Part shown: one piece after another, positions 62,491 to 64,000 of the stretch
Layout: every line of letters begins with the position of its first letter
Numbering within the stretch: position 1 is the stretch's first letter
Origin: Oscillospiraceae bacterium
GTDB lineage: Bacteria > Bacillota > Clostridia > Oscillospirales > CAG-272
Direction of reading: 5' to 3'
Assembly: GCA_015064285.1 (NCBI GenBank)
Contig: SVSN01000008.1
Span: forward strand, 9,498 to 73,497
Length of the DNA stretch: 64,000 nucleotides
Translations under genes and position numbers: made by a program
The notes under the pieces: generated by a model
The model's database searches: none
What the model saw: only the letters and a program-made list of their open reading frames with translations
What the model was told of the DNA's origin: nothing

Positions 62491-62621
62491 TTTTTTCTTT
62501 TCCTTTTCTTTTATCTATTTATTTGGAGATAAAGTAGAGCCGGTTCCTAAGTCTGTTTCAGTTCTTGCACTCGCTCACATTCGTTTCCGGCAGTCAGCGG
62601 CTCTCTTTCTCTGTTGACATT

Positions 62622-62650
62622 ATTATATCACACTCTTGTCAGTATGTCAA
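62622..62650 (-). promoter_or_regulatory. sigma-A promoter driving the 62490-59788 minus-strand operon
   Basis: Minus strand TTGACA-17 nt-TATAAT (perfect consensus hexamers). Confidence 0.7.
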
Positions 62651-62656
62651 CAGAAT

Positions 62657-62673
62657 TCGTGACATCAATGTCA
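62657..62673. promoter_or_regulatory. operator-like palindrome, copy 1
   Basis: TCGTGACATCAATGTCA contains the perfect inverted repeat TGACAT-CA-ATGTCA. The same 15-mer recurs at 62716-62730. Confidence 0.6.
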
Positions 62674-62709
62674 ACAAAGTTGAAGCTTCTTTTTTGTTCA
62701 ATTTGTCTC

Positions 62710-62738
62710 TTGAGATCGTGACATCAATGTGATATAAT
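62710..62738 (+). promoter_or_regulatory. sigma-A promoter of the XRE gene with operator copy 2 in its spacer
   Basis: TTGAGA-17 nt-TATAAT with a TGa extended -10. The spacer is TCGTGACATCAATGTGA. Confidence 0.7.
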
Positions 62739-62776
62739 TTTTCTGCAACAACAACAAACATAAGAGAGGATTCAAC

Positions 62777-63028
62777 ATGATCAAATATGATAAGTTAATC
62801 AAACTAATTAATGACAGGGGGATAACCACATATAAAATGAAGGTTGAAAATATCATCTCCCAGGCCACATGGCAATCCGTGAAAAACGGCAGAGGCGGTC
62901 TTGACCACCGTAGCATTAATAAACTGTGCGCCTACCTCGGAGTTCAGCCAGGTGACCTCATGGAGTACATCCCCGATCCCGTAGAACCAGACCAGAACCC
63001 AGGAGAAGACGACAATCCACAGGGATGA
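62777..63028 (+). CDS. XRE/Cro-C1-family HTH transcriptional regulator
   Basis: 83 aa with an AGAGAGGA RBS. HTH_26-like (LIKLINDRGITTYKMKVENIISQATWQSVKNG...INKLCAYLGVQPGDLMEY). Confidence 0.8.
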   Translation: MIKYDKLIKLINDRGITTYKMKVENIISQATWQSVKNGRGGLDHRSINKLCAYLGVQPGDLMEYIPDPVEPDQNPGEDDNPQG

Positions 63029-63177
63029 TATGCATAAATATACTACAAATATCATATTTATGCAATTTATATTCATTTTTTGAAAAATTTTTAAAATAAC
63101 CATAAAAAAGTATCATTGAAATAGGCACTTTTTGACCCTGTTTTTTCCATAAAATCTTATTTTTATTTTAACGTATA

Positions 63178-63216
63178 AAAACCCGGTAATTCTCATCCGA
63201 ATGCCGGGTTTTCTCA
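63178..63216 (+). terminator. intrinsic terminator after the XRE gene
   Basis: AACCCGG-N17-CCGGGTT followed by TTCTC, with an A-run upstream. Confidence 0.55.
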
Positions 63217-63224
63217 TTTCCGTA

Positions 63225-63780
63225 GATCAATTTTAGGATTGATTTTTTAAACACGGTTTAGTAATAAGTAAATACCTAACGATTTTTCCCTCTGTAAAAA
63301 AGTCAAGATTTTCTAAGTTGGAGGGAATATATTTATACCCGAATGTGAAGTGATCAATTTCAGGATACAATTATTAAATAAGGTTTAGAATTAAGGAAAT
63401 ACCTAACGATTTCGGTTACATCCCAAAAACAAAAATTTCAAAGTTGAAGGGGAACGAAACTTACTCAACTACATTTCTTTAAATCCAGCAGTGAAGTCAG
63501 ATCAATTTTAGGATGAGATTATTAAACAAGGTTTAGAATTAAGGAAATACCTATCGATTTCAGACATACAGTAAAAATACAAAATTTTAAAGTTGGAGGG
63601 AATATACATCTCCACAAAAATTCCGTAAATCAATTTTGAGATAAATGTTTTTCTGGACAGATAAATTTCTGGATTGAATTATTTAACACGGTTTAGTATC
63701 AAGGAAACACCTAACGATTTCGGGTATACGGTAAAAATCTAAAATTTTAAAGTTGGAAGGAATATATTCCATCCGTCCAT
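63225..63780 (+). repeat. array of four degenerate tandem units (127/148/128/153 nt), candidate repeated ncRNA locus
   Basis: Units start at 63225, 63352, 63500 and 63628. They share ordered blocks ATCAATTTT.AGGAT, TTAAACA.GGTTTAG.A.TAAGGAAATACCTAACGATTTC and AAAGTTGGAGGGAATAT, each followed by a non-homologous 14-44-nt tail. No ORF of 60 aa or more is present. Confidence 0.85.
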
Positions 63781-63805
63781 GAGAGGTTTACCCCTCTCTT
63801 TTTTT
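63781..63805 (+). terminator. strong intrinsic terminator closing the repeat array
   Basis: GAGAGG-TTTACC-CCTCTC followed by T7. There is no A-run upstream, so it is plus-strand specific. Confidence 0.8.
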
Positions 63806-63848
63806 AGTCAAACTTTGCAAACATGAAAACAAAAAAGGAGCAAAAAAA

Positions 63849-64000
63849 ATGAAAATCAATGCAAAAAAACTCACAGAAGTTTACCCCACTGGCAACATCC
63901 CCCGCATTGCACCGGATGAACGATACTATCTGATTCCAGGTGCCAGTGATTACGCCATATCCGACTATGGCAGAGTATATAACTTTAGGCAAAATCGGCA
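63849..64000 (+). CDS. NUMOD4-motif (HNH homing-endonuclease-like) protein, N-terminal part only
   Basis: AAGGAG RBS 10 nt upstream of the ATG. MKINAKKLTEVYPTG...ERYYLIPGASDYAISDYGRVYNFRQNR matches the NUMOD4 pattern (x-W/Y-x-I-x-G-x-x-Y-x-I-S-x-x-G-R-V). The ORF is cut by the window end. Confidence 0.6.
   Translation, partial: MKINAKKLTEVYPTGNIPRIAPDERYYLIPGASDYAISDYGRVYNFRQNR

Follow-up and report, generated by a model that had tools for sequence, protein, structure and literature searches.

The window analysed here is a 64,000-nt stretch of contig SVSN01000008.1 from an Oscillospiraceae bacterium, and our subject is an array of four units near its end (63223-63780), which lies within an integrative element, between the gene for a Cro-like XRE regulator and that for a 342-aa I-HmuI-like (NUMOD4) protein. 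An earlier note, made from the sequence alone, had singled the array out as a repeated RNA-like locus of no class that it could name. We found the repeat to be real, selected and lineage-specific, and tentatively read it as a DNA control module of the downstream operon. The units and their parts are as follows.

63225-63351, plus strand: unit 1, with the 5' block GATCAATTTTAGGAT, a central block at 63255-63285 and an A-rich linker; at its 3' end lie the 3' block TAAGTTGGAGGGAATAT (63314-63330) and a tail terminating in GTGAAGT
63352-63499, plus strand: unit 2, the most diverged, with a central block at 63382-63412, the 3' block AAAGTTGAAGGGGAAC (63440-63455) and a tail of 44 nt terminating in GTGAAGTCA
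63500-63627, plus strand: unit 3, the reference copy, with a central block at 63530-63560 and the 3' block TAAAGTTGGAGGGAATAT (63588-63605)
63628-63780, plus strand: unit 4, with a central block at 63690-63720, the 3' block TAAAGTTGGAAGGAATAT (63748-63765) and the tail hairpin GGAAGGAATATATTCCATCC
63628-63659 and 63660 onwards, plus strand: duplicated 5' block of unit 4, an internal 32-nt duplication

A repeat search recovered a 109-nt conserved core in four copies, beginning at 63223, 63350, 63498 and 63658 (spacings of 127, 148 and 160 nt) and 72-83% identical to the reference copy in unit 3, whilst the units themselves measure 127, 148, 128 and 153 nt. When the four were aligned with MAFFT, the blocks followed one another in the same order and then gave way to non-alignable tails, such that the head-to-tail units with ordered shared blocks and non-homologous tails described in the earlier note were confirmed by both methods. 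A degenerate 31-nt pattern for the central block matched the 64-kb window exactly four times, against an expectation of 0.00, and the 31-nt 5' block was found five times in the array, with two of these occurrences (63621 and 63653) in unit 4, where a duplication had indeed been noticed before. Tandem Repeats Finder (TRF) did not call the array because its copies are too diverged. Taken as a whole, the composite and oriented unit has a 5' part made of a ~20-nt asymmetric block, (GTGAAGT..)GATCAATTTTAGGAT, and a central inverted repeat, and a 3' part in which an A-tract linker leads to a -10-like hexamer and GAGGGAT, the G-run and the tail together forming a short inverted repeat.

No conserved open reading frame (ORF) was found on either strand of the array or of the units of its relatives (introduced below). 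Minus-strand ORFs of 45 and 41 aa are confined to units 1 and 3, without counterpart in units 2 and 4, and the ATG-initiated ORFs in the units of the relative L013 have no ribosome-binding site, end at differing stops and run in a frame that differs from that of the window. As no ORF is conserved between units or relatives, a coding role was rejected, and the non-coding status assigned to the array at the outset is borne out. Similarly, neither tRNA nor transfer-messenger RNA was found in the region, and a dispersed repeat resembling a miniature inverted-repeat transposable element was rejected because the 64-kb window contains no further copies of the unit. A genuine repeated non-coding locus is therefore supported, and its context within a mobile element, also claimed earlier, is confirmed by the gene content given below.

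As relatives of the array we took the loci on contigs that carry orthologues of the 342-aa protein; the identity of this protein to that of the window is given for each.

L010 (85% identity): three units with spacings of 195 and 149, in which the window's cores and tails are re-assorted, and a 65-nt GC-rich insertion
L013 (53% identity): three units with spacings of 130 and 143
L017/L018 (47% identity): three units with spacings of 176 and 199
L016/L019 (48 and 53% identity): one unit
L015 (46% identity): one diverged unit
L014 (49% identity): one reduced unit, without the 5' block
L169 (36% identity): no units upstream of the gene, which is preceded by a 144-nt gap

The units always lie in one orientation and directly upstream of every array-bearing 342-aa orthologue, with 80-123 nt from the last GAGGG block to the start codon, and they span 127-199 nt with the window included and 130-199 nt outside it. 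Units of the relatives with 342-aa proteins of 46-53% identity have their end blocks in common with the window's (GTGAAGT..GATCAATTTT.. and ..GAGGGAT with a hairpin), the central block being different. An extended 5' block, (A)TGTGAAGT(CA)GATCAATTTT(A/G)(G/A)GAT, is common to the unit families, as are a small central inverted repeat (GAAA..TTTC), an A-rich linker and a short hairpin between G-run and tail, and the remainder of the unit sequence differs between families. The 19-nt sequence GTGAAGTCAGATCAATTTT is identical in the window and L013, although the adjacent 342-aa proteins are only 53% identical; end blocks conserved in this manner beside proteins of ~50% identity argue for selection on the blocks. 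No units were found in L166/L167 or L168, loci at which a related helicase is accompanied by an unrelated HNH_3 protein instead of a member of the 342-aa family.

Between the window and L010 the parts of the array have been shuffled. Tails T1, T2 and T4 are 96-100% identical in L010 and re-assorted relative to the cores; that of unit 2, at 100% identity, stands there behind a different core. A varying number of units together with re-assorted cores and tails is what unequal crossing-over in a DNA repeat is expected to produce. The duplication might be neutral or nearly neutral, with only the gene-proximal unit functional (as promoter or leader) and the rest left by slippage or unequal crossing-over, an explanation that we regard as distinctly unlikely. 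It would suit the single-unit relatives (L016/L019, L015 and L014), the changes of unit number and order in close relatives, the 32-nt duplication in unit 4 and the insertion in L010; yet at least three diverged lineages (window/L010, L013 and L017) have gained or kept arrays of several units, and the conserved blocks are kept in all copies whilst tails and linkers diverge. Moreover, the exact XRE protein of the window is present on at least 23 public contigs, and in all nine of the loci fetched the 820-nt intergenic region, array included, is 100% identical to the window's. The insertion in L010 (5656-5725; 65-70 nt, GC-rich, TGTCCCCTCCGG...GTCGGCGGGGATAGT, with inverted ends) sits exactly at a unit junction, has no equivalent in the window's array, and might represent either the insertion of a small hairpin element or a scar left by recombination.

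Searches of wider collections returned little. With blastn the array matched nothing in the phage and plasmid collections, and in the same annotated collections tblastn gave no match for the 584-aa protein encoded further downstream and only distant, partial homing-endonuclease matches for the 342-aa protein. The central-block pattern had 0 matches in viral contigs, and a two-unit pattern of the 5' block matched 8 stretches in viral contigs and at least 120 metagenome rows, none of which was matched by an nhmmer profile of the unit; the rate of chance matches to this pattern in AT-rich DNA is higher than estimated. Searches with the 342-aa protein returned L016 only from genomes, nothing from metagenomes, and distant domain matches or none from viral contigs. 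The element was not found in IMG/VR or in the phage or plasmid collections, and the Rfam, phage and plasmid comparisons were all empty, in keeping with the earlier note, which could name no class for the array.

The notion that the units are structured RNA modules was not upheld by folding. On neither strand did single window units fold more stably than shuffles that preserve dinucleotides (z from +1.0 to -1.1), and the whole array folded as RNA gave z = -0.14. RNAalifold assigned the four window units a consensus of -4.4 kcal/mol with no compensatory pair, and 11 units from three unit families a consensus of -1.29 kcal/mol with 3 pairs, such that covariation support for the hairpins is essentially lacking. 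Units of L013 fold better (z of -3.2 and -4.6), and do so equally on both strands because a DNA palindrome occupies the middle of the unit. The GAAAT/ATTTC hairpin and the pairing of tail with 3' block, both pointed out in the earlier note, do exist; their stability in the window's own units is nonetheless no better than that of shuffles (z from -0.05 to -1.35 for the GAGGG-block hairpin). Across all families, the G-run of this block was used in the minimum free energy (MFE) structure of the 42 nt from the block in 14 of 16 units, with a mean z of -1.44 on the plus strand versus -1.11 on the minus strand. A known RNA family was rejected following scans with Rfam 15, where the best matches in and around the array scored 12-27 bits (E > 0.7), far below gathering scores, and the relatives gave no match. 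A new class of structured or guide RNA thus has no support, and the array is for this reason less significant than the earlier note had hoped.

Two known kinds of locus had been suggested as analogues, and we consider it very improbable that the array is either a locus of the type III toxin-antitoxin (TA) kind or a guide-RNA array for an RNA-guided nuclease. Repeats, a terminator and a protein gene do follow one another in the window as in ToxIN, and the operon combines a nuclease-derived fold with a DinG-like helicase, helicases of this sort being companions of type IV clustered regularly interspaced short palindromic repeats (CRISPR) and DdmDE systems. However, the units measure 127-199 nt instead of 34-45 nt and are hence 3-4 times too long, the protein downstream has an I-HmuI-like fold in which the HNH catalytic histidine is not conserved, the terminator is missing in L013 and L017, and no match to ToxN/AbiQ/CptN/TenpN, Cas, TnpB/IscB or any other defence family was obtained with Pfam, PHROGs, PADLOC or NCBIfam. 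The likeness to a guide scaffold with a variable tail fared no better, as T1, T2 and T4 are identical or nearly so in L010 and neither targets nor effectors were found: no tail had a match of more than 12 nt in the window or related elements, and no gene of the element encodes Cas, TnpB/IscB, Tas or another RNA-guided effector. The tails were rejected as guides for want of protospacer-like matches, and a defence system was rejected because PADLOC and NCBIfam gave the element's proteins no defence or toxin assignment.

The array is flanked by the following features.

63029-63224, plus strand: AT-rich structured spacer (RNA fold -39.3 kcal/mol, z = -5.04), containing an 11-bp AT hairpin right after the XRE stop codon (63031-63064) and a long A/U-rich hairpin
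63178-63216, plus strand: intrinsic terminator before the array (stem 63178-63211, inner stem 63195-63209, T-run to 63216), ending 8 nt before unit 1
63781-63805, plus strand: intrinsic terminator after the array, between unit 4 and the downstream gene (GAGAGG-TTTACC-CCTCTC and T7; stem 63781-63798)

Both plus-strand terminators proposed in the earlier note were found, and there are three terminator-like hairpins in total between the XRE gene and the 342-aa gene of the window. The one at 63781 has a counterpart in L010 and, as a homologous hairpin without a T-run, in L019/L016, and no terminator lies between units and gene in L013 and L017. The array starts just after a terminator in the window, L010, L013 and L019, which is the ordinary layout of an insulated control region. 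Separately, a 16-nt direct repeat (AGAGGTTTACCCCTCT / AGAAGTTTACCCCACT, 88% identical) connects the loop region of the second terminator (63782-63797) with codons 9-14 of the 342-aa gene (63875-63890), and may be due to chance.

Upon scanning the window and its relatives for sigma-70-type promoters (-35/-10, 16-18-nt spacing), none above chance was found inside the units. The window region yielded 7 promoter-like matches versus 5.6 +/- 2.2 by chance, none of them placed consistently in units, and the TTGATT and TTGAAT -35/-10 pairs previously proposed for units 1 and 4 fail the criteria of the scan. No promoter was found in the 45 nt before the 342-aa start codon of the window. With no convincing promoter in or before the window's array, its description as a separate transcription unit is unsupported; three terminators and no promoter ahead of the 342-aa gene point instead to operon expression from activator-dependent starts in the units or by read-through. 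Among promoter elements in the units, only a -10-like hexamer is conserved, 0-3 nt before GAGGG in all unit families (TATAAT in L019, TATAAC in L013, TATATG in L017, TATTAG in L015 and TAAAGT in the window).

These surroundings are where a role in RNA has to be weighed. Possibly, though we rather doubt it, the units act as plus-strand RNA, in the form of a long leader or small RNA (sRNA) precursor that binds a protein or RNA polymerase; nut/put-like antitermination across 63781-63805, a protein sponge and an antitoxin-like partner of the downstream protein are all possible roles. The terminators that bracket the array are plus-strand only, the orientation of the units to the gene is invariant, and a perfect 12/12 promoter with TG, the only one before the gene, precedes leader, terminator and units (in this order) in L013 and L019. 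In addition, the position of the array between a cro-like gene and replication genes is that of lambdoid nutR/putR and tR1, the GAGGG-block hairpin recurs across families with different partner sequences, and pairing in the central hairpin of L017 unit 2 (CGGGA/UUCCG) is maintained despite changes, among them a G.U pair on the plus strand. Set against this, the units and the whole array are no more structured than shuffles and share no conserved consensus structure, and in every lineage a terminator stands immediately before unit 1, so that transcription into the units would need read-through. Furthermore, the strand asymmetry of the GAGGG-block hairpin is small, the central hairpin of unit 4 favours the minus strand, and the central palindrome also occurs at scattered intergenic sites, as is typical of DNA operators. 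A narrower version, whereby the array is transcribed and its unstructured ~130-nt modules work at the RNA level with the catalytically degenerate I-HmuI-like protein and the helicase, strikes us as improbable; in that case an antitoxin-like or sponge RNA bound by protein, or an array for processive antitermination that controls replication of the element, would be conceivable.

A candidate for a non-coding RNA that is better than the array came to light in the relatives. In L013 and L016/L019 the pre-array terminator closes a leader driven by the 12/12 promoter, and the window-type element has neither this promoter nor the leader. In L019 (1663-2022; also L016 ~70-430, L166 3340-3735 and L167) the promoter is followed by a structured stretch of ~326-350 nt, which in L019 has an MFE of -105.9 kcal/mol (z = -7.13) and ends in a 19-bp terminator. 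No Rfam match was obtained for the leader of L016/L019 and L166/L167. It occupies the same position as the window's array, between the XRE gene and the operon, and is kept between elements with helicases ~54% identical, making it a candidate for an undescribed structured leader or sRNA.

The genes on either side of the array were assigned as below, in agreement with the XRE regulator and NUMOD4/HNH-like neighbours recognized in the earlier note.

62777-63028, plus strand: gene for a Cro-like XRE/HTH_26 regulator of 83 aa (Pfam HTH_26, E 9.6e-12), the first gene of the rightward arm
63849-64000, continuing past the window end, plus strand: gene for the 342-aa I-HmuI-like (NUMOD4) protein (weak NUMOD4 match, E 0.003)

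Genes beyond the window end at 64000 were read from public contigs sharing the exact XRE protein, and from the relatives. The integrative element measures ~16-17 kb and begins in the window at ~58.6 kb, where GC content falls just past a gene for pseudouridine synthase, in a host that encodes SpoIIR and is hence an endospore-forming Firmicute. Its genes run in the order Bro-N, serine resolvase, two small ORFs, ArdC, a 91-aa ORF, a divergent promoter region, XRE and the array; then the 342-aa protein, DUF5659 (62 aa), a 584-aa P-loop protein, a 60-aa helix-turn-helix (HTH) protein and a ~100-aa ORF; and finally a ~2000-aa tape-measure-like protein, Xis (HTH_17) and a tyrosine integrase. The array was rejected as a res site of the serine resolvase on position alone, the resolvase gene being 3 kb away.

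The AlphaFold model of the 342-aa protein (predicted local distance difference test, pLDDT, 78.5) found its best Foldseek match in the nicking homing endonuclease I-HmuI (probability 0.96, E 0.016), and its PHROG matches are annotated as 'HNH endonuclease'. A seven-member alignment of the family shows no conservation at the site where the catalytic HNH histidine would be expected, for which reason we take the protein to be probably a sequence-specific binder of DNA and not an active nuclease. An exhaustive profile search placed 41 clusters (50% identity) in this family at E < 1e-30 among 1.84 billion representatives. The 584-aa protein is a superfamily 2 (SF2) helicase of the XPD/DinG type (model pLDDT 88; E 1e-12 to XPD and DinG, with CasDinG and DdmD also matched) from a family of at least 144 clusters, some members of which are fused to NUMOD4 or to an NrS-1 primase-polymerase helix-bundle domain. 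Together, the 342-aa protein, DUF5659 and the helicase look like a replication-type module.

Several observations on the element stand apart from the array. The helicase (L001 12310-14064; homologues P0009-P0128; L168; L170) marks a wider family of small integrative elements with a tyrosine integrase and a serine resolvase, a type of element that appears to be undescribed; in L170 the element interrupts a GGGtGRT-family gene, and in L168 a Toprim/DUF3991 protein and a Tn916-type Xis accompany the helicase. The ~2000-aa protein (L001 14992 onwards; L010 10302-16196) has an N-terminal phage tape-measure domain (PhageMin_Tail / TIGR01760) in an element without capsid, portal or terminase genes, and satellite-like tail hijacking or transfer is a candidate role for it. 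In the window, 62600-62760 holds divergent promoters (12/12 on the minus strand at 62650-62622, 11/12 on the plus strand at 62710-62738) and two exact copies of TCGTGACATCAATGT ~60 nt apart; the element probably has its XRE operator and switch here. We rejected the 5' block of the units as a further XRE operator, as it shares only ATCAAT with the TCGTGACATCAATGT operator repeats and is also conserved in L013, where a ribbon-helix-helix (RHH) protein replaces XRE.

Short DNA motifs connect the units of some relatives with other parts of their elements. The central block of the L013 and L016/L019 units is an 11-13-bp palindrome, CGAAA[C/G]TTTCG, which is also present at other intergenic sites of L013, L014, L016/L019 and L169, partly inside unit-like repeats (CTC.CCATTTTGTGAAC ... 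palindrome ... AA.GAGGGAT) and beside direct TTTCGG(G/T) repeats. Such palindromes were seen only in elements with the 342-aa family and in neither of the two with other HNH_3 proteins (L166 and L168). Clusters of direct TTTCGG(G/T) with CGAAA-N-TTTCG lie at L010 16260-16420, L013 20060-20230, L014 12430-12500, L019 5440-5590 and L169 9900-10140; those of L010 and L013 are found between the giant gene and xis/int, the L010 cluster holding 6 of 12 plus-strand TTTCGG copies in 5.6% of the locus. They look iteron-like, and are candidates for the origin, the origin of transfer (oriT) or recombination arm sites of the element family.

An origin might equally be sought in the array itself, as part of the replication origin or as an auxiliary cis-replication region of the element, each repeat combining initiator motifs with an AT-rich unwinding stretch at which the I-HmuI-like protein would load the DinG-like helicase, in a manner comparable to the two 120-bp crr repeats of satellite phage P4. 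Although we consider this unlikely, the array does adjoin a module with a helicase that has homologues fused to primase-polymerase domains, its GC content is 29% versus ~45% in the flanks, with A-tracts present, its copy number varies, and half-site motifs are common to units and the iteron-like TTTCGG clusters of related elements. The clusters of L010 and L013 are nonetheless better origin candidates, as are structured non-coding regions downstream of the helicase in L015 and L017; the window's own units have little in common with the clusters, their spacing is irregular, L019 and L015 manage with a single unit, and at L169 no unit precedes the gene. The non-coding regions in question (L015 8766-9994 and L017 3688-4860) are ~1.2 kb long, lie right downstream of the helicase gene and contain long inverted repeats, including a near-perfect 61-bp palindrome at L015 9298-9358. 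Origins of phage-inducible chromosomal islands and Staphylococcus aureus pathogenicity islands (PICI/SaPI type) are located just downstream of a helicase gene, and by analogy these regions are possible origins.

Our preferred explanation, held tentatively and as a possibility short of a probability, is that the array is a tandemly duplicated, oriented cis-control module (protein-binding DNA or leader) of a replication-type operon. The module precedes the genes for the I-HmuI-like protein, DUF5659 and the XPD/DinG-like helicase, in four copies here and one to three in relatives, and its units would act mainly as DNA, offering putative binding sites to a sequence-specific protein of the element. 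The most plausible binder would be the catalytically degenerate I-HmuI-like protein encoded just downstream, which may set or titrate expression of the operon as operator or iteron arrays do, with repression, activation or origin function as conceivable outcomes; the terminators on either side of the array would insulate and attenuate this expression, that at 63781-63805 serving as attenuator or insulator. We count in favour of a DNA control module the conserved position and orientation of the units, their constrained end blocks and lack of RNA structure, the co-occurrence of the palindrome with the 342-aa family, the replication-type neighbours, the terminator just ahead of the units, the conserved -10-like hexamer before GAGGG, and the varying number of units with their re-assorted cores and tails.

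A number of observations run counter to this explanation. The GAGGG hairpin, which recurs in 14 of 16 units, is equally compatible with a single-stranded (RNA) role, no full sigma-70-type promoter was detected in any unit, the flanking terminators face the plus strand only, and strong plus-strand promoters are directed into the units of L013 and L019. The window's own central block, GGAAATACCTAACGATTTC, is not a clean palindrome and does not recur outside the array in the 20 kb of window-type element read, and GATTTCGG is present in only two of the four window units, leaving the link to the L010 TTTCGG cluster weak. Lastly, irregularly spaced units of 130-200 bp are unlike classical iterons or operators of 17-22 bp.

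Should the favoured explanation be true, the array would be the control or binding-site array of small integrative elements (~16 kb) in gut Clostridia, an undescribed family that combines a domesticated homing-endonuclease fold of the I-HmuI type with an XPD/DinG-like helicase. The array would then provide a concrete, testable DNA target for the 342-aa protein family and an example of unusually long composite 'iterons'; were the RNA-protein version true instead, it would represent a long-unit RNA-protein system without described counterpart. Searches of the literature for DUF5659 and for NUMOD4 with helicases turned up nothing relevant, and no described equivalent was found in the resources searched. 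Arrays of binding-site repeats beside replication genes are known as a kind, whilst the long composite unit and its protein partner are new.

Of known systems, iteron and operator arrays share with the present locus several direct protein-binding modules beside a replication-type operon and a variable copy number. P1 incC/incA and F RepE have direct iterons at the origin and inverted half-iterons at the rep promoter, and the relatives likewise have inverted CGAAA-N-TTTCG upstream of the gene and direct TTTCGG clustered elsewhere. Iterons, however, are phased repeats of 17-22 bp, whereas the units are composites of 127-199 bp with irregular spacing, the putative binder is I-HmuI-like instead of Rep_3/RepA-type, and the motif link is weak in the window-type element. 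Satellite phage P4 offers another parallel in crr, two ~120-bp direct repeats with alpha-protein binding octamers that are also present at ori: in both cases long direct repeats (~120-130 bp) are found in a small integrative element, short embedded motifs recur at another non-coding locus, and there is an association with a helicase-containing replication protein. Unlike the array, crr is separated from ori by 4.5 kb and does not directly precede the replication gene, and its sequences and proteins are unrelated.

The remaining comparisons concern RNA. Like ToxIN, CptIN and TenpIN, the locus, carried by a mobile element in bacteria of the gut Clostridia type, places tandem non-coding repeats and a terminator ahead of a protein gene, but its repeats are 3-4 times longer and 72-83% identical, as opposed to the near-identical repeats of ~34-45 nt in type III TA loci, the encoded fold is I-HmuI-like and not that of a ToxN-type endoribonuclease, the terminator is not conserved, and single-unit relatives exist. 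CRISPR and guide arrays differ in that the tails here are conserved between relatives and without target matches, and no effector is adjacent. Lambdoid nutR/putR with tR1 similarly lie between a cro-like gene and replication genes, with terminators and on the transcribed strand. No N-like or Q-like protein was identified in the element, and nut and put sites occur singly and form defined stem-loops (boxB; two put stems), whereas no fold is conserved among the units, which two terminators precede.

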